64,000 nt of DNA from Anaerolineae bacterium (GTDB taxonomy: Bacteria > Chloroflexota > Anaerolineae > Aggregatilineales > Phototrophicaceae), in contig JAJDZQ010000120.1 in NCBI GenBank assembly GCA_022824565.1, positions 74,445 to 138,444 of the forward strand. Direction: 5' to 3'. Both the position numbers and the translations under genes were made by a program. Of this stretch, positions 15,162 to 31,226 are shown one piece after another. Each line of letters starts with the position of its first letter. Position 1 is the stretch's first letter. The notes beneath the pieces are model-generated. The model was not told the DNA's origin, searched no databases, and saw only the letters and a program-made list of their open reading frames with translations.

Positions 15162-15488
15162 CCCCCATCCCCCGGCCCCTTGCCCCCATTGAGAGGGAAG
15201 GGGAGCTAGAATCGAGGAAAATCGTCGTTATTTCTGGTGTTTTCAGCAGCACCATACCGAATTCTCATGCGATCATTCGGCTTTAAGCCCCTCCCTCTTC
15301 ATGGGCTGAGGAGAGGACATGTTTCATTCTACCCCATCCCCAGCCCTTCCCCATATCAATGGAGAAGGGAGACTCGTCGAGAAACCAGTGCAATACTTGC
15401 TATCTGCAAGAAATTGAGCATCAGTGTTCATTTTCTCTGCATGCGCTCCCCCTCCCTGATGCTTCGGGGAGAGGGTTGGGGGGTGGGG
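15162..15488. repeat. four G/C-tract hairpin repeats in a long intergenic spacer
   Basis: Hairpins at 15162-15205 (ccccttgcccccattgagagggaagggg), 15287-15317, 15331-15372 (cccttccccatatcaatggagaaggg) and 15446-15488 (family A, ctccccctccctgatgcttcggggagaggg). Confidence 0.65.
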
Positions 15489-15513
15489 CAGGCCCTCACG
15501 TGCGCTCGGGCGC

Positions 15514-16227
15514 TCACCAGGGCAATTCGCTGCCGTCGTATTGGTAGAATTTGCCCTGGTCTGCCTCGGTCAAGCCGCCGATCAATGTGTGCAAGCCACT
15601 GCCCGATTCCTCTGGTTCGAGCAGCGCGCCCGCGCCGCCCATATCGGTTTTCACCCAGCCGGGATTGGCTGTGATGGTGATGATGCCCGCCATCGCTTCA
15701 TCAAATGCCAGCACGCGCGCCGCCATGTTCATCGCCGCCTTGCTCATGCGATAGGCATAGGAATCGCCTTGCGTCCGCTGCATAGAGCCCATGCCCGACG
15801 AAATCATGACAACCCGCGGATTGTCGCCCGCGCTCAGCAGCGGCCGGCAGGCTTGCGTCACAATCAGCGCGGCCACGGCGTTGGTGGTGATGATCTCGCT
15901 GACATCGTCGGCGGACAAGCTGCCCATGTGGCTCGATTGATGTGCGCCTCTGGGATTGATGCCGGCGTTGTTGACGAGGATGTCCAGCGCGCCGGCTCTG
16001 GCTGCGATTCGCTCGGTCGCGGCGGTTATGGACCTCGCATCGTTGACATCCAGCTGCACGATGACGAGCCTGTCGGCAGCTTGCCCCGCCCGTTCTTTCA
16101 AGCCCGTAGCGGCAGACGGTCGCCGACAGCCAGCGAAGACCAGCGCATCGCCCGCGGCGACATATTGCCGCGCCAGCTCGAAGCCGATGCCACGATTCGC
16201 GCCTGTGATCAAGATTCTTTGCATCAT
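15514..16227 (-). CDS. short-chain dehydrogenase/reductase (SDR)
   Basis: TGANRGIG cofactor motif. The first 19 codons lie inside the proximal copy of the 57-bp duplication. Confidence 0.85.
   Translation of the reverse strand: MMQRILITGANRGIGFELARQYVAAGDALVFAGCRRPSAATGLKERAGQAADRLVIVQLDVNDARSITAATERIAARAGALDILVNNAGINPRGAHQSSHMGSLSADDVSEIITTNAVAALIVTQACRPLLSAGDNPRVVMISSGMGSMQRTQGDSYAYRMSKAAMNMAARVLAFDEAMAGIITITANPGWVKTDMGGAGALLEPEESGSGLHTLIGGLTEADQGKFYQYDGSELPW
16168..16224. repeat. 57-bp direct repeat, copy 1 (heads the intact SDR ORF)
   Basis: ccgcgccagctcgaagccgatgccacgattcgcgcctgtgatcaagattctttgcat, identical base for base to 17523-17579. Confidence 0.95.
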
Positions 16228-24058: not shown

Positions 24059-24183
24059 TGGGCGACAGCAGGCTAACTTTCGCGGACGAACATCGCGTAT
24101 AGTGTAGCATGATGCCGATTCTGCGGCGTGTTGGAGCTTGGCAATTTTGCGCCTTCCGCATGGACGCGCCAACGAGGATCTGG

Positions 24184-25104
24184 ATGACACATATTCCCGT
24201 CTTGCTGGAAGAAGTCAGCGCGGCGCTGATACCCGGTGGCAATGCGCCGGCACGGGTTATAGACGGCACCCTGGGCGCTGGCGGGCACAGCCAGGCGCTG
24301 CTGGAGGCAGGCGCAGAAAAGCTGCTGGGCTGCGACCTGGATGCTCACGCCCTGCGGACAGCCCGGCAGACATTGCAAGAGCATGGCGACCGGACGCATA
24401 TGTTCCAAGGCAGCTATTTGCGCATGCGTGATTACGCGCAAGAACTGGGCTGGGATGTCGTGGATGCCATTCTGCTGGATCTGGGCTTGTCTTCGCTGCA
24501 ACTGGACGACCCCGCCCGCGGCTTCTCGTTTCGACACGCTGCGCGGCTGGACATGCGCTTTGACACATCTTTGGGCGCAAGCGCGTACGACCTCGTCAAC
24601 AGCCTGCCGGGCGAGGAGTTGACGCGGCTGCTGTTTCGCTATGGTGAAGAACGACAGGCTCGCCGCATCGTCCGCGCCATCGTGGCTGCCCGACCGATCG
24701 GCACAACGCGCGAACTGGCCGAGCTGGTCGCCGCCGCGCTGCCCGCCCCCTTGCGCCGATCCATGCGCATTCATCCAGCCACGCGCACATTCCAGGCGCT
24801 GCGCATCGCAGTCAACGACGAACTGGCCACAGTCGAACGGGTCATCCCCATCGCCGTCGATCTGCTGCGTTCGGGCGGCCGACTGGCGATCATCAGCTTT
24901 CACAGCCTCGAAGACCGCATCGTCAAGCGGGCTTTCCGCGAGCTGGCGCACAGTCAGGCTGCTCCGCCGGGCATGGCCTCGCTGGGTAGCAAGCGCGCGA
25001 GCATCCGCCTCGTCAACCGCAAGCCTATCATCCCCAGCCAAACAGAGATCCAGCGAAATCCACGCAGCCGCAGCGCCAAACTGCGGGTTGCCGAGAAGTT
25101 GTAA
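24184..25104 (+). CDS. rsmH: 16S rRNA (cytosine1402-N4)-methyltransferase
   Basis: MTHIPVLLEEV, DGTLGAGGHS and DLGLSS motifs. First gene of the dcw cluster. Confidence 0.92.
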   Translation: MTHIPVLLEEVSAALIPGGNAPARVIDGTLGAGGHSQALLEAGAEKLLGCDLDAHALRTARQTLQEHGDRTHMFQGSYLRMRDYAQELGWDVVDAILLDLGLSSLQLDDPARGFSFRHAARLDMRFDTSLGASAYDLVNSLPGEELTRLLFRYGEERQARRIVRAIVAARPIGTTRELAELVAAALPAPLRRSMRIHPATRTFQALRIAVNDELATVERVIPIAVDLLRSGGRLAIISFHSLEDRIVKRAFRELAHSQAAPPGMASLGSKRASIRLVNRKPIIPSQTEIQRNPRSRSAKLRVAEKL

Positions 25105-25190: not shown

Positions 25191-25661
25191 ATGTCGCAAG
25201 CCTGGTTTCAACATACATTCAGCCGCCGACGCTTCCAGACGCAGAGCCAGGCGACAGCCATCGCCATCCTGAGTGTGGCGATTCTGTTGATTCTGGGCAG
25301 CTTGTATCTGTCGCAGGTGGCCGCTTTTGCCATTACGAATCGCGAAATCGAAGACCTCATCAGCCGCCGCGACGAGATCAAACAGCAGAACGAACAGCTC
25401 ATCGGCGAGATAGCCAGCTTTCGCACCGTGCCGCGTTTGTATGCCCGCGCGGTAGAAATCGGCTTTCGCCCCGCCACCAACGACGACATTGAATACCTGG
25501 TCTTTGAAAGCTACAACCCAAATCTGCAAACAAGGTCATTCGCAGCCGCAGCAAGACACAGCGCCGAGCCAGCCGCATCCGATTATGACGAGACATTTGG
25601 CGGGTGGCTGCAAGCGCAATTTGATCACTTGCGCCGGCAATTCCAAGCATTCGGCGAGTGA
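25191..25661 (+). CDS. ftsL: FtsL-like cell division protein
   Basis: Single TM helix (AIAILSVAILLILGSLYL) followed by a coiled-coil-like segment. Positioned between rsmH and ftsI. Confidence 0.6.
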   Translation: MSQAWFQHTFSRRRFQTQSQATAIAILSVAILLILGSLYLSQVAAFAITNREIEDLISRRDEIKQQNEQLIGEIASFRTVPRLYARAVEIGFRPATNDDIEYLVFESYNPNLQTRSFAAAARHSAEPAASDYDETFGGWLQAQFDHLRRQFQAFGE

Positions 25662-25664
25662 CGC

Positions 25665-27422
25665 ATGCCGGGACAATCCACACAGCAAGCCACCATCCAT
25701 GCGCGCCTGCCCATCGTGGCGCTCTTTCTGATCTTCCTGGCCAGCTTGCTCATCATCCATTTGGCGAACTTTCAGTTCTTCCCGCGGTCGGTGCGGCAAG
25801 AGCTGGAGCGCATCGGCAGCTCGATCACCAATACGACCCTGCGCATCCCGGCTGAACGCGGCATGATTTATGACCGTGATGGCGAGCCGCTGACCTTCAA
25901 CATTATGCAATATCGACTCGGAGTCAGCCCCGACCTGGTCTTTGATGCCGAGACTTTGATGAAGCAATTGTCCGTGATCCTGGATATGGATGAAGTAGAG
26001 CTTTACTTCCGACTGACCAGCGAGAATGTTTGGGAGTTTGTGGCGGGACCCATCTCGGCTGAGCAGGGCCAGGCGGTTGCAGAGCTGGACGACATATCGC
26101 TGGGCTTGGAAGAGATACCCAGGCGCTTTTATCCACAAGGCAGCCTGGCCGCGCATGTCATCGGCATCGTATTGGACGACGGGCTAATCGGCACCCTGGG
26201 CGTGGAAGGCGCATACAACAGCACATTGGCGGGCCGGGTGATGGATTTGTCGGTCAGCAATGTGCCTTTCGACTTGCCCGAAGACCGGCCTGCCGAACAG
26301 CGCGGGCAAGATATCGTGCTGACGCTCGACCGCGATGTGCAATTCTGGATGGAAGTCGAGCTGGAGCAGGCAGTCCGGGAAAATGGCGCCTTCCGCGGCA
26401 GCATCATTGTCATGGATCCGCGCAATGGCGAAGTGCTGGCGCTGGCGAATTATCCTTCTTTTGACCCCAACCGCTTCCTGGAAATCACCGATCCCAATCT
26501 GCTCATCAATCCGGCTGTGCAAGAGACCTATGAACCGGGCTCGCTCATGCAGGTGCTGACGGCGGCGACAGCGCTGGAAAGTGGCGCCATCACCTCGCAA
26601 TGGAGCTATAATGATGTCGGTTTGATCGAGATCGGCGGGCGCGAGTTTCGCAATCGCTTTTTTCGAGCGCACGGCACTGTCGATATCGCCGGCGTGCTGG
26701 CGCAATCGCTGCATGTGGGCAGCGCAACCATGGCGCTGGAAATGGGCGAAGAAGCATTCTACAACGGCTTGCGGGCATTTGGCCTCGGGCAAGCGACGGG
26801 CGTGGGCTTGTTCAACGAAGAGCAGGGCGAGCTGCGTCTGCGGGGCGATACCGGCTGGAGCGAAAGCGCTTTTGGGCTGAATAGCTATGGACAAGATCTG
26901 CAAGTCACTCAGATGCAGATGATCACCGCCTTCGCGGCCATCGCCAACGACGGCATCATGCGTCAACCGCATATCGTCCGCCAGGTGATTAGCGAAGAAG
27001 GACCCAAAGACGCGCGGCACAGCACAGTCCGGCGCGTGCTTTCGACAGAAACCGCCACCATTCTCAAAAATTTGCTGGTGCGCACAGTGCGCGAAGGCGC
27101 TCCCGAAGCCTATATGCCCAATTACACCGTGGCTGGCAAACCGGGCACCGCCCAGATCAACACCGCCATCGGTTATGAGACAGGACCGAACTCCTCGATC
27201 GTATCCTTCATCGGTTTTTTGCCGGCTGACGCGCCAGAAGTGGTGGCGATGGTCAAGCTGGACAGACCCGACGACTTTTTCGGTTTTGAAGTGGCTGCGC
27301 CGGTCTTCAGACGCATCGCCGACCGGCTGGTTATTCTGCTCGAGATCCCGGACGACGCGGTTCGGCAGGAGCTGCAAGCGGTCGAAGCCCGCCTGCGCGC
27401 GTCCCAGACGGAGCAAGGCTAG
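25665..27422 (+). CDS. ftsI: class B penicillin-binding protein (FtsI homolog) with non-canonical catalytic motifs
   Basis: N-terminal TM, PBP dimerisation and transpeptidase-fold regions align by eye to E. coli FtsI. The motif positions read EPGSLMQ, QSLHVG and GKPGTA instead of SxxK, SxN and K(T/S)G. Confidence 0.85.
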   Translation: MPGQSTQQATIHARLPIVALFLIFLASLLIIHLANFQFFPRSVRQELERIGSSITNTTLRIPAERGMIYDRDGEPLTFNIMQYRLGVSPDLVFDAETLMKQLSVILDMDEVELYFRLTSENVWEFVAGPISAEQGQAVAELDDISLGLEEIPRRFYPQGSLAAHVIGIVLDDGLIGTLGVEGAYNSTLAGRVMDLSVSNVPFDLPEDRPAEQRGQDIVLTLDRDVQFWMEVELEQAVRENGAFRGSIIVMDPRNGEVLALANYPSFDPNRFLEITDPNLLINPAVQETYEPGSLMQVLTAATALESGAITSQWSYNDVGLIEIGGREFRNRFFRAHGTVDIAGVLAQSLHVGSATMALEMGEEAFYNGLRAFGLGQATGVGLFNEEQGELRLRGDTGWSESAFGLNSYGQDLQVTQMQMITAFAAIANDGIMRQPHIVRQVISEEGPKDARHSTVRRVLSTETATILKNLLVRTVREGAPEAYMPNYTVAGKPGTAQINTAIGYETGPNSSIVSFIGFLPADAPEVVAMVKLDRPDDFFGFEVAAPVFRRIADRLVILLEIPDDAVRQELQAVEARLRASQTEQG

Positions 27423-27424
27423 CT

Positions 27425-28450
27425 ATGGAAAGCCAACTGCCACTGGCGCTCAGCATTGGCGCTGCGACATTCGTGCTCGGCATGATCTGGGGCGGTCCTT
27501 TCATTGCCATCCTGCGCCTGTTGAAGATCGGCAAGCAGATCCGCCCCGAGCTGCAAGACAGCAGCCACATCAACAAAGTCGGCACGCCGACCATGGGCGG
27601 CATCATGATCATCGTGCCGGCGATCTTGTTTTCGCTGGCGCTGAACTTGTCGCGCATCGTCGAAGAAGGCAGCGGTCGCAGCATCTTGCTGCCGCTATTC
27701 GTATTGATCGGCTTCGCGCTGCTGGGATTGATCGACGATTGGGCGGGCATCCAGACTTCGCGCGGTAACCTGGGAGAGGGGCTTTCGGGTCGGGTCAAGT
27801 TCGCTTTTCAGATCATCCTGGCGCTTTTTGCCTCGACCGTGATGTCGCATTTTGAATTCTCTTTCGCCAATTCTTTGACCCTGCCTTTGTTGCAAGTTAC
27901 TGTCCCGGTGAATCCCGTCATTTTTGTTGTGATTAGCACATTTATCATTGTGGCCAGTTCCAATGCGACCAATCTAACCGATGGGCTGGATGGCTTGGCG
28001 GGCCTCATCACTGCCAGCGCCTACGCCGCGTATGGCGTCATCGCCGTCCTGCAAAATCAGATTTTCGTCGCCGAGCTGTGCTTCGTCGTTGTGGGCGCGT
28101 GCTTTGCGTTCTTGTGGTACAACGCGCATCCAGCCCAATTATTCATGGGCGATACCGGCTCGCTCTCGCTGGGGGCGACGCTGGGCGCGGTCGCAGTCAT
28201 GTCGGGGCATTGGCTGCTGCTGCCCATCATTGCCATTGTGCCCGTGGCCGAGATCCTCAGCGTGATTATCCAGGTGACTTCTGCCAAGATCACGCGGCGC
28301 TTTTATGGCGTCGACTGGCGGCCCTTTTTGCGCACGCCCATCCATCATCACTTCGAGCTACTGGGCTGGAGCGAGATGCGCATCGTGCAACGTTTTTGGC
28401 TGATCGCGATATTGAGCGCGTTCGTCGGCGTGGCGCTGGCGTTGCTCTGA
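27425..28450 (+). CDS. mraY: phospho-N-acetylmuramoyl-pentapeptide transferase
   Basis: NATNLTDGLDGLAG and FMGDTGSLSLG motifs. Confidence 0.93.
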   Translation: MESQLPLALSIGAATFVLGMIWGGPFIAILRLLKIGKQIRPELQDSSHINKVGTPTMGGIMIIVPAILFSLALNLSRIVEEGSGRSILLPLFVLIGFALLGLIDDWAGIQTSRGNLGEGLSGRVKFAFQIILALFASTVMSHFEFSFANSLTLPLLQVTVPVNPVIFVVISTFIIVASSNATNLTDGLDGLAGLITASAYAAYGVIAVLQNQIFVAELCFVVVGACFAFLWYNAHPAQLFMGDTGSLSLGATLGAVAVMSGHWLLLPIIAIVPVAEILSVIIQVTSAKITRRFYGVDWRPFLRTPIHHHFELLGWSEMRIVQRFWLIAILSAFVGVALALL

Positions 28451-28464
28451 GCCTGGGCGGGGGT

Positions 28465-29874
28465 ATGAGCGGACGCGATTATCTGGCCGGCAAACGTGTC
28501 GTCATCTTTGGCTTTGGCCGACAGGGACGCGCCCTGGCTCGCTGGTTGCCCACAGTTGGCGCGGATGTGGTTGTCACCGACAGTCGCAGCGCCCGGGAAT
28601 TGGCTGTGCGCCGCCGCGACTGGAAAAGTGTGCGCTTTTATCTGGGCGGACACCCGGAAGATGTGCTGTTTGGCGCGCGTTTGATCTGCGTTTCTGGGGG
28701 TGTGCCGCTGGACTTGCCCCTGCTGGTCGAGGCGCGCGAGCACGGCATCCCCCTAAGCAACGATGCCCAGCTCTTCCTGGAGCGCTGCCCGGCGCCCGTC
28801 ATCGGCATCACTGGCAGCGCTGGCAAGACGACGACCGCCTCGCTGGTGGCAGCTATCCTGCGGCAAGCTGGCTACACCGTCTGGCTGGGCGGCAATATCG
28901 GCAATCCCCTGCTCGAGGACCTGGCGAAGATCAAGCCGATGGACATCGTCGTCATGGAGCTTTCCAGTTTTCAGCTGGAGTTGATGGGCAGCTCGCCACC
29001 GGTCGCTGCCATTTTGAATTTGACACCGAATCACCTCGATCGGCATGGCAGCCTGGACAAATACGCCGCTGCCAAGTCGAACATATTGCGGCATCAACGC
29101 AAGCAGGATGTGGCGGTTCTTTGTCAGGACGACACAGGCAGCCAGCCTTTCGCGCCGTTGGTGGCTGGCGAATCCCTGCGCTTCAGCAGCTACGAAATGG
29201 TTGCGAATGGTGCCTTTATGCTGGGCAACCGGCTGTTGGTTGCGGGCGCGGCCAGTTTTGATGGCGCGGCGCATGTGGTTTGTCGGCGAGACGATATCTC
29301 GCTGCGCGGCGATCACAATGTGTCGAATGTGCTGGCGGCCTGCGCGATCACCGGCGGCATGGGCTTGGCGACCGACCGTCCCGGCATCGCGCCAGAGGTG
29401 ATGCGCGCCGCCATTCGCGACTTTCGTCCGGTGGCGCATCGGCTGGAAATCGTGCGCAGGCAAAATGGCGTCAGCTGGGTCAATGACAGCATCGCCACCG
29501 CGCCAGAACGACTGCACGCAGCCCTGAAAAGCTACGACGAGCCACTGATATTGCTGATCGGCGGGGCAGACAAAGACCTGCCCTGGCAAGCGGCGTTGCA
29601 AGTTGCCCTGCGCAAGGCAAAGCATATCGTCGTCTTTGGAGAAGAGGGAGAAAAGCAGGTTGCCTCAAAGGTGATGCCCTTGCTCAGCTTGCTGCATCCG
29701 CGCCAGGGACAAGTGCTGCGCGCCGACACCTTGGCCGCTGCGGTCGAATGCGCGGCGCGGGTGGCGCTGGCGGGCGATGTTGTGCTGCTTTCGCCTGGCG
29801 GCACCAGTTATGACGTCTATGCAGATTTCGCCGAGCGCGGAAATCACTTTCGCCAGTTGGTAACTCAACTATAA
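28465..29874 (+). CDS. murD: UDP-N-acetylmuramoylalanine--D-glutamate ligase
   Basis: MSGRDYLAGKRVVIFGFGRQGRA N-terminus and GITGSAGKTTT P-loop. The track ORF start (28078) lies inside mraY. Confidence 0.9.
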   Translation: MSGRDYLAGKRVVIFGFGRQGRALARWLPTVGADVVVTDSRSARELAVRRRDWKSVRFYLGGHPEDVLFGARLICVSGGVPLDLPLLVEAREHGIPLSNDAQLFLERCPAPVIGITGSAGKTTTASLVAAILRQAGYTVWLGGNIGNPLLEDLAKIKPMDIVVMELSSFQLELMGSSPPVAAILNLTPNHLDRHGSLDKYAAAKSNILRHQRKQDVAVLCQDDTGSQPFAPLVAGESLRFSSYEMVANGAFMLGNRLLVAGAASFDGAAHVVCRRDDISLRGDHNVSNVLAACAITGGMGLATDRPGIAPEVMRAAIRDFRPVAHRLEIVRRQNGVSWVNDSIATAPERLHAALKSYDEPLILLIGGADKDLPWQAALQVALRKAKHIVVFGEEGEKQVASKVMPLLSLLHPRQGQVLRADTLAAAVECAARVALAGDVVLLSPGGTSYDVYADFAERGNHFRQLVTQL

Positions 29875-29900: not shown

Positions 29901-31226
29901 ATGAGCGAGCAAACCAGCCCCGATGCGCGGTATCGGCGATTGCGGCGCAGGCTGCGACAACGCAGAGGCGTGCCCCTGGATAGTGGCGCCGGTCGTCCGC
30001 GCCGATTCTATCTGCCCCGCCAGCGCTTCCTGAACGCTTTTGACCGGCCGCTGCTGGCGATCGTGCTGCTGTTGCTTATCATTGGCTCGTTGATGGTCTT
30101 CAGCGCGACATTCGACTGGAGTCGCGCGACTTATGGAACAGCCAGCGGCTTCTTTGTTGAAGAGCACTTGCGCAATATCGGCTGGGCAATTTGGTGGATG
30201 TTTGTGTTCGCGCTGGTGGATTATCGCTTTTGGAAGCGATTTGCTGTCTGGCTGCTGCTGTTTACGATTGTTGCGCTGGCGGCGGTGCTGTTCGTTGGCG
30301 AAGAAGTGTTTGGCGCGCGACGTTCTTTTTCGGCGGGCCGCTTCCAGCCCGGAGAATTGGCAGAATTCGCCATTGTGCTCTATCTGGCGGCTTGGCTGGG
30401 CTCCAAGCGAACCCGGCCCGCCAGTTTGTTGTTTGGCTTGGCGCCTTTTTTGATTGTCGTAGGCGTGGTGGGTTTTCTCATCGTTCAGCAGCCAGATCTG
30501 AGTTCGGCTGCCATCGTCGTGTTGACAGCGGGCGCGATCTATTTTGTGGCTGGCGCGAACATTTTTCATCTGGCTGCCATTGGCGCGTTGTCGAGCAGCG
30601 TCGCGCTATTTATGCTGCAAGTCTTTCCCTATGCCCAGCGGCGGGTCGATAACTTCTTGGCCGGGCTGAGCGATCTGACACTGGCCGAATACCATACCTT
30701 GCAAGCCATCACGGCATTTTTGCGCGGCGGCTGGTTCGGCGTCGGCGTCGGACAATCCCAGCAGAAGTTTGGCGCGCTGCCCGCCCCGCACACCGACAGC
30801 ATCTTTGCGGTGATTGGCGAGGAGCTGGGCGTATTGGGCGCTGCGGTTGTCGTTACGCTATTTATCTGTTTTGCCATTCGCGGCTTCCAGTTGGCGCGGC
30901 GGGCAAAAGACGATTTTGGCGCTTTGCTGTGCGTGGGCTTTACCTCTTGGGTGATCATCCAGGCGCTGCTGAATATCGCCGTGATGACGGGCGCGATTCC
31001 ATCGACGGGCGTCCCGCTGCCATTCATCAGCTTCGGCGGATCGTCCTTGACTGTGGTGATGATCGGCGTAGGCTTGATGCTCAGCGTACAGCGGGTGGCG
31101 ACACGCCGCATACCTATCTCGGAACGGAGAAGCGAGCTTGCGAATACTGATCGGGGCGGGCGGCACCGGCGGTCATATTTATCCCGCGCTGGCGACAGCC
31201 CAGGCTCTGCTGAGCGCGGGGGCTGA
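29901..31226 (+). CDS. ftsW: SEDS family peptidoglycan glycosyltransferase FtsW
   Basis: Polytopic, with the PLPFISFGGSSL motif. The C-terminal tail overlaps murG by 89 nt. Confidence 0.88.
   Translation: MSEQTSPDARYRRLRRRLRQRRGVPLDSGAGRPRRFYLPRQRFLNAFDRPLLAIVLLLLIIGSLMVFSATFDWSRATYGTASGFFVEEHLRNIGWAIWWMFVFALVDYRFWKRFAVWLLLFTIVALAAVLFVGEEVFGARRSFSAGRFQPGELAEFAIVLYLAAWLGSKRTRPASLLFGLAPFLIVVGVVGFLIVQQPDLSSAAIVVLTAGAIYFVAGANIFHLAAIGALSSSVALFMLQVFPYAQRRVDNFLAGLSDLTLAEYHTLQAITAFLRGGWFGVGVGQSQQKFGALPAPHTDSIFAVIGEELGVLGAAVVVTLFICFAIRGFQLARRAKDDFGALLCVGFTSWVIIQALLNIAVMTGAIPSTGVPLPFISFGGSSLTVVMIGVGLMLSVQRVATRRIPISERRSELANTDRGGRHRRSYLSRAGDSPGSAERGG

Follow-up and report, generated by a model that had tools for sequence, protein, structure and literature searches.

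A 64,000-nt stretch of an Anaerolineae bacterium assembly (GCA_022824565.1, contig JAJDZQ010000120.1, positions 74,445 to 138,444; hereafter the window) carries a division and cell wall (dcw) cluster in which the ortholog of FtsI, a class B penicillin-binding protein (PBP), has all three catalytic motifs of its transpeptidase (TP) domain altered. Loss of the SxxK Lys is fixed throughout the genus to which the organism belongs, and the decay of the catalytic positions proceeded in a discernible order. The gene is maintained under purifying selection beside an intact FtsW, and the genome encodes paralogous PBPs with canonical motifs. FtsI transpeptidase activity is usually regarded as an essential and druggable part of the chemistry of bacterial division, and to our knowledge a catalysis-independent role of a class B PBP, as activator or scaffold of a SEDS-family (shape, elongation, division and sporulation) polymerase, has to date been demonstrated solely with laboratory-made active-site mutants. 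The altered FtsI described here is probably a natural pseudo-transpeptidase that has been kept as a scaffold or activator of FtsW, with cross-linking carried out by other PBPs of the same cell.

The reading frame is free of stops along its length and encodes an anchor, a pedestal and a transpeptidase-fold domain (Table 1), the last of these matching the PF00905 profile over positions 1-298 of 299. In the AlphaFold2 model a single long helix spans residues 6-37, and the TP domain has a predicted local distance difference test score mostly above 90, giving a confident PBP fold; a Foldseek search with this model returned SpoVD and PBP3 as best matches (E 2e-40), and SpoVD and FtsI/PBP3 were likewise the best matches among solved structures. 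The motif register was fixed by HMMER (phmmer) alignments to the solved PBP3 and SpoVD structures. In these, 'epgslmqv' of the window protein aligned with 'epgstfkl' of Clostridioides difficile SpoVD (7rcz) and 'epgstvkp' of Pseudomonas aeruginosa PBP3, 'aqslhvg' with 'nscnpv' and 'kssnvg', and 'agkpgta' with 'ggktgta' and 'agksgta', respectively. No alternative register giving canonical motifs was found in the phmmer alignments to the solved structures. The CAG codon of Gln296 is one base away from the Lys codon AAG. A preliminary description of the window, made from the sequence alone, had placed SLMQ, SLH and KPG at the residues and nucleotides listed in Table 1 and had aligned them by eye on SxxK, SxN and KTG; translation and coordinates reproduced these positions exactly, and the Pfam profile and solved-structure alignments agreed on the register. 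Its account of an intact, in-frame gene packed between ftsL and mraY also held (a 585-aa open frame flanked at 25661 and 27425), as did its view of FtsW as apparently normal (PF01098, with Asp299 of the HTD motif kept).

By descent the protein fits the FtsI/PBP3 lineage of class B PBPs, combining an anchor, PF03717 and PF00905 with a dcw position, and it is the true dcw FtsI ortholog with anchor, pedestal and transpeptidase fold preserved. It resembles canonical FtsI/PBP3 of the FtsWIQLB complex (P. aeruginosa, 8bh1; Escherichia coli PBP3) in dcw position, domains, fold and the presence of an adjacent FtsW with its Asp, but differs from it in the alteration of all three motifs. Of the motifs of a D,D-transpeptidase (EC 3.4.16.4), namely SxxK, SxN/SxD and K(T/S)G, it has none. 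Scores against the curated NCBIfam models lay far below their cut-offs, both for FtsI (NF011685; 161.7 bits, cut-off 737) and for SpoVD (TIGR02214; 302.5 bits, cut-off 688). The top match by both sequence and fold was SpoVD of C. difficile, which acts with SpoVE and has been studied alongside PBP3 of that organism (Shrestha et al. 2025, PMC12713402); unlike the window protein, SpoVD is canonical and sporulation-specific, cortex synthesis cannot do without its catalysis, and its dead form is an engineered mutant (PMC12713402).

The distribution of motif states was examined across 201 genomes sampled from the GTDB family, which include 31 species of the organism's own genus (g1; labels of this kind for genera, genomes, loci and contigs are our own). 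An open ftsI frame was present in all 31. At the position of the SxxK Lys these species have Gln or, in two sister species, Leu, such that none retains Lys and none has a fully canonical FtsI. SxxQ was also found in about 105 of the 120 closest database proteins. Outside the genus, ten genomes from five neighbouring genera all had SxxK/SLN/KTG, and these five, together with 24 and four more, bring the canonical genera of the family to 33 in total. At the level of the class, canonical motifs were seen in 58 of 60 genomes drawn from 53 families, and SxxK was kept in 136 of the 140 nearest cluster representatives at 50% identity. Three of these 140 representatives, P0140, P0152 and P0246, were degenerate, with AVII/ASH/MLT, GVFQ/GSN/KAG and SVFT/SYN/KFG, respectively; the first of these states corresponds to that of genus g124, described below.

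In the maximum-likelihood gene tree, g1 formed a single clade (SH-aLRT 100) whose stem is long, and the replacement of Lys by Gln was placed on that stem as a single event. The deepest-branching g1 genome sampled (G176) has SVLQ/SLN/KTG, with Lys to Gln as its sole change. Within the genus, the third motif follows the series KTG to KAG to KPG on the tree, the nucleophilic Ser was replaced by Thr on five separate occasions, the Asn of SxN was replaced by Asp, His, Arg or Thr, and the Lys of KTG by Arg, Met, Val or Ile. His350 is restricted to the five-species subclade that contains the window organism, other members of g1 having Asn, Asp, Arg or Thr at this position. The preliminary description had set a conserved pseudo-enzyme, with substitutions shared by orthologs, against orthologs with canonical motifs; what all 31 species share is the absence of the Lys, and His350 and Pro493 are steps later than its replacement by Gln. 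By parsimony over six catalytic positions, 21 changes occurred inside g1 and none in the 10-genome outgroup. Such drift of the other catalytic residues after the Lys to Gln replacement is the pattern expected if that replacement abolished catalysis and thereby lifted selection on them. The columns invariant in canonical relatives that are altered in the clade comprise K296Q, T493P, W331R, D332x, I389E, W539Y/F, S541Y and a few N-terminal sites. In this column comparison no compensating Lys or His fixed in the clade was found, and the idea of a migrated lysine was rejected, as the altered columns show no gain of either residue.

Altered FtsI proteins were also found in two other genera of the family. 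All eight genomes of g132 have SLMQ, (S/T)LN and (M/T)AG at the three motifs (loci L164-L171 and L212-L213; genomes of 2.8-3.3 Mb). All three genomes of g124 have VVVI, AIMI or AVII, then GTH, GTQ or ASH, then MLA, YFA or MLT, so that an FtsI such as AVII/ASH/MLT is without the Ser and without either Lys (loci L209-L211 and L214-L215; open frames of 592-614 aa; genomes of 2.3-2.7 Mb). These two, of the three genera with a dead FtsI, have the smallest genomes of the family sample. Frames were open in all 8 g132 and all 3 g124 genomes, the order rsmH-ftsL-ftsI-mraY-murD-ftsW was the same, and the HTD of FtsW was intact. When the motif columns were removed, g132 was placed beside the canonical genera g117, g140 and g137, and g1 beside g5, g4, g112, g120 and g119. 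A single SxxQ origin for g1 and g132 was rejected by the approximately unbiased (AU) test on the alignment without motif columns (p 3.9e-60, 173 log-likelihood units worse), and it was therefore concluded that the same Lys to Gln replacement arose at least twice. The g124 stem, with a length of 1.5, is too long for firm placement in the tree. In another Anaerolineae family, the dcw FtsI of genome G031 (L089/L120) reads EPRATQMP, SRI and GFSS in the motif regions (RATQ/SRI/FSS). Canonical motifs are present in three other members of that family; G031 represents a further independent loss.

Selection was assessed from Nei-Gojobori estimates of dN/dS for unsaturated within-genus pairs, with inter-genus pairs, which are saturated (dS about 1), being ignored. 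For ftsI of g1 the ratio was approximately 0.05-0.15, in the N-terminal part and the TP domain alike, and within-genus pairs from the canonical genera g125, g117 and g137 gave about 0.1. A large relaxation, suggested by one outgroup pair (dN/dS 0.017), was dropped once more canonical pairs gave values of about 0.1 and overall omega proved no different. Identity of the protein to that of the window was 98, 93, 94, 91, 89, 87, 93 and 70% in the g1 members compared, values which match or exceed those of FtsW, MurD and MurG from the corresponding genomes; in the genome pairs concerned, identity was also equal to that of MraY. Purifying selection acts on the whole protein, and the gene is maintained, not decaying. 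Relaxation of constraint in the g1 TP domain is nevertheless measurable, if modest to moderate: the ratio of TP to N-terminal branch length was 1.20 in g1 versus 0.74 outside, a relative speed-up of the TP domain of about 1.6-fold, and PF00905 scores were 194-241 bits in g1 versus 250-277 bits in most other genera.

The presumed partner of the altered FtsI is encoded downstream in the same cluster. The order in the window is rsmH-ftsL-ftsI-mraY-murD-ftsW-murG-murC-murB-ftsQ-ftsA-ftsZ, a compact cluster in which the ftsL-like frame ends 3 nt ahead of the ftsI start and whose synteny around ftsI is the same in relatives. The ftsL-like open reading frame (ORF) gave no Pfam match. In a full-length alignment to P. 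aeruginosa FtsW (8bh1), the catalytic Asp299 (nt 30795-30797) is kept, and the surrounding PAPHTDSIF is identical in 8 of 8 loci of g1. No murE or murF lies between ftsI and mraY (27422-27425) in the cluster, unlike in the loci of family f31; Mur-ligase paralogs occur elsewhere in the genome (C128:~56.7-57.5 kb and C137:14.5-15.5 kb).

Table 1. Positions of the altered ftsI, its domains and motifs, and neighbouring dcw genes in the window.
Feature	Residues	Position (nt)	Strand	Basis
rsmH		24109-25104		
ftsL-like gene, 156 aa, one transmembrane helix then a coiled-coil-like stretch		25191-25661	+	position, sequence features, same place in relatives
ftsI, dcw-cluster FtsI ortholog, 585-aa class B PBP, all three catalytic motifs altered		25665-27422	+	ORF/translation, Pfam, structure matches, synteny
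N-terminal membrane anchor, putatively transmembrane (LPIVALFLIFLASLLIIHLANF)	~15-36	25707-25772	+	hydrophobic stretch in translation
Pedestal / PBP dimerisation domain	61-191	25845-26237	+	PF03717 PBP_dimer, E 4.9e-15
Transpeptidase-fold domain, predicted catalytically dead	245-552	26397-27320	+	PF00905, E 3.4e-63
Motif 1, SLMQ replaces SxxK; Ser293 kept, Lys to Gln296	293-296	26541-26552	+	TCG CTC ATG CAG
Motif 2, SLH replaces SxN (Ser348-Leu-His350)	348-350	26706-26714	+	alignment to solved structures
Motif 3, KPG replaces KTG/KSG (Lys492-Pro493-Gly494)	492-494	27138-27146	+	alignment to solved structures
mraY		27425-28450		
ftsW, SEDS glycosyltransferase, presumed partner of the altered FtsI		29901-31226	+	PF01098, E 1.3e-81

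The other wall enzymes were inventoried in the organism's own genome (3.46 Mb, 94.6% complete), as the preliminary description had proposed. Eight further PF00905 matches were found in seven ORFs. Two of these ORFs are class B PBPs of the architecture MecA_N + PBP_dimer + TPase, of 720 aa (contig C35) and 763 aa (C63), with the canonical motifs SVMK/SCN/KTG and SVYK/SCN/KTG; their N-termini are signal-peptide or lipobox-like, the 763-aa protein having an LAGC lipobox. Each of the two paralogs has SxxK/SxN/KTG in 21 of 21 g1 genomes, as against none of 31 for FtsI. A single PBP2-like class B PBP with SVWK/SCD/KTG is encoded near a SEDS gene on contig C50, and there are two class A PBPs, both canonical, as well as four YkuD-domain ORFs. 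A g1-specific extra PBP as the cause of the loss was rejected, as PBP counts are similar (7-9 in g1 versus 9-10 outside) and the MecA_N paralogs pre-exist in sister genera.

The seven ORFs also include a PbpA-type protein with a degenerate TP domain and one weak class A PBP-like ORF. On contig C79 (26026-28755), a third SEDS gene (26026-27342), whose catalytic HSD Asp is kept, is followed directly by a gene for a 470-aa PbpA-type class B PBP (27343-28755) with PBP_dimer_2, GNMY in place of SxxK and no KTG, and an FHA-domain-like ORF lies upstream of the pair. As judged by its motifs, this would be a second pair of a SEDS protein and a dead class B PBP in the same genome; it shares with the altered FtsI a dead TP domain and SEDS pairing but differs in its PBP_dimer_2 pedestal and non-dcw position. 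A 913-aa ORF on contig C3 (~15385-15840) has a weak, sub-threshold match to PF00905 (20.8 bits) with no recognisable SxxK, and may represent a class A PBP-like protein that has degenerated.

These observations are best accommodated by a mechanism in which the general-base Lys of SxxK was replaced by Gln, the lineage of the window organism later adding Asn to His in SxN and Thr to Pro in KTG. We propose that acylation and peptidoglycan cross-linking by FtsI were lost because this Lys is Gln, and that what kept the protein in place is the dependence of FtsW, shared with other SEDS polymerases, on a cognate class B PBP. The altered FtsI would then serve as a structural or allosteric partner of FtsW, as well as a link to FtsQ/FtsL, and other enzymes encoded in the genome would form the septal cross-links. 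Foremost among the candidates would be the two canonical MecA_N proteins, which have the architecture of Bacillus subtilis PBP3 and Staphylococcus aureus PBP2a, with the two class A PBPs or L,D-transpeptidases as possible alternatives. That activity was lost, that the protein is a scaffold or activator and that particular enzymes cross-link the septum are thus deduced from the comparison of sequences. Of the two options that the preliminary description had offered, a non-catalytic scaffold or activator is the one favoured by the genus-wide Lys to Gln replacement, the residue drift, the purifying selection and the intact FtsW.

There is a close experimental parallel in B. subtilis, where PBP2B(S309A) supports division if PBP3 (PbpC) is present (Sassine et al. 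2017, PMC5656894). In that organism the division class B PBP is structurally required while its catalysis is dispensable (PMC5656894), cross-linking being supplied by a second class B PBP related to S. aureus PBP2a, and the present genome has two canonical MecA_N proteins of the same architecture. Both genomic elements of a PBP2B(S309A)-type arrangement were found here, namely a SEDS partner with its Asp and competent MecA_N class B PBPs. The B. subtilis case, however, concerns a Firmicute in which a point mutation was engineered, whereas the state described here is natural and fixed in whole genera; moreover, the Lys rather than the Ser was lost first, followed by erosion of the other motifs, and the compensating enzyme is here a candidate only.

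Several points weigh against a pseudo-transpeptidase retained for FtsW. The organism is uncultured and the case is built on comparison of sequences. Since canonical sister genera carry the MecA_N paralogs too, the redundancy is older than the loss; it permits the loss but does not prove compensation. The independence of the g1 and g132 events is drawn from a single-gene tree, and the choice of the group for the AU test followed inspection of that tree. Finally, the near-invariant, convergent Gln, a nucleophile position that changes only to Thr and a TP domain whose dN/dS matches the low value of the pedestal could mean that the pocket has a specific function.

The last of these points leads to the alternative that survives best, although we regard it as unlikely: the dead TP domain may have taken on a new, non-covalent task in ligand binding or regulation and be more than a passive scaffold, for example by binding stem peptide or lipid II with no acylation step and gating FtsW, or by recruiting a cross-linking PBP. 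It would suit the retention of Gln296 in ~97% of 129 clade sequences, the convergent SLMQ of g132 and the toggling of the g1 nucleophile position between Ser and Thr alone. However, the residues that would bind a carboxylate or D-Ala-D-Ala drift freely (the KTG Lys to Met, Arg, Val, Ile or Thr and its Thr to Ala or Pro; the SxN Asn to Asp, His, Arg or Thr), and g124, which has neither Ser, Gln nor Lys at these positions, still keeps the gene. The restriction to Ser or Thr at position 293 would also fit an N-cap role at the start of helix 292-306 of the model, and Gln can be explained as a one-base, near-isosteric substitute for a buried Lys.

A considerably less probable alternative is that the protein retains D,D-transpeptidase or other acyl-transferase activity through unusual chemistry that dispenses with the SxxK Lys, as the preliminary description had also suggested. 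Ser293, Lys492 and Ser348 are present in this genome and the fold is intact, yet the clade has no new conserved Lys or His that could compensate, and sister species carry a Thr nucleophile or have Met, Arg, Val or Ile in place of the KTG Lys, variation which a conserved alternative mechanism would not tolerate. The near-universality of canonical motifs outside the dead clades also speaks against it, and this suggestion was accordingly left unsupported. Still harder to credit is that the gene has lost all function and is drifting towards pseudogene status. The erosion of catalytic residues and the acceleration of the TP domain over the N-terminal part, as compared with canonical relatives, would be in keeping with such a fate, but frames are open in 31 g1, 8 g132 and 3 g124 genomes at a dN/dS of about 0.1, identity matches that of essential neighbours, and the tightly packed operon position is kept. 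Since the motif changes recur in all 31 g1 species, in independent assemblies, sequencing error, which the preliminary description had named as a possible source, is excluded, and with the profile- and structure-based registers in agreement and nothing found in its favour, an artefact of sequencing, assembly or misregistered alignment can be set aside.

Beyond a pseudo-transpeptidase that supports FtsW, it is conceivable, if rather doubtful, that inactivation of FtsI has been an adaptive and repeatable move in this Anaerolineae family and not neutral decay. If so, the module created by the convergent Lys to Gln replacement (SLMQ twice) would still dock substrate or partners without ever being acylated, providing a division scaffold that offers no beta-lactam target, and septal cross-linking would have moved to the PBP2a-like MecA_N enzymes, with the outcome of an intrinsic tolerance of beta-lactams that arose by natural evolution. 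In another version, the module would sense stem peptides and gate FtsW.

Full-text searching of the literature found no natural motif-dead FtsI, the examples being engineered only. In a 2025 survey of morphogenetic synthases (PMC12516126), pseudogenes and domain variants are reported, and a term search of it gave no mention of a motif-dead, intact FtsI. The family described here would therefore provide a natural counterpart of the laboratory mutants, in which FtsI catalysis appears to have been lost at least twice while the protein has been kept under selection comparable to that of its canonical relatives. The stepwise decay of the active site is recorded across more than 40 species, a natural data set that may separate FtsI residues required for catalysis from others required for its partnership with FtsW. 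It also places MecA_N/PBP2a-like class B PBPs together with a dead FtsI outside the Firmicutes. In such lineages, neither the annotation 'FtsI' nor an inferred beta-lactam susceptibility would be transferable.

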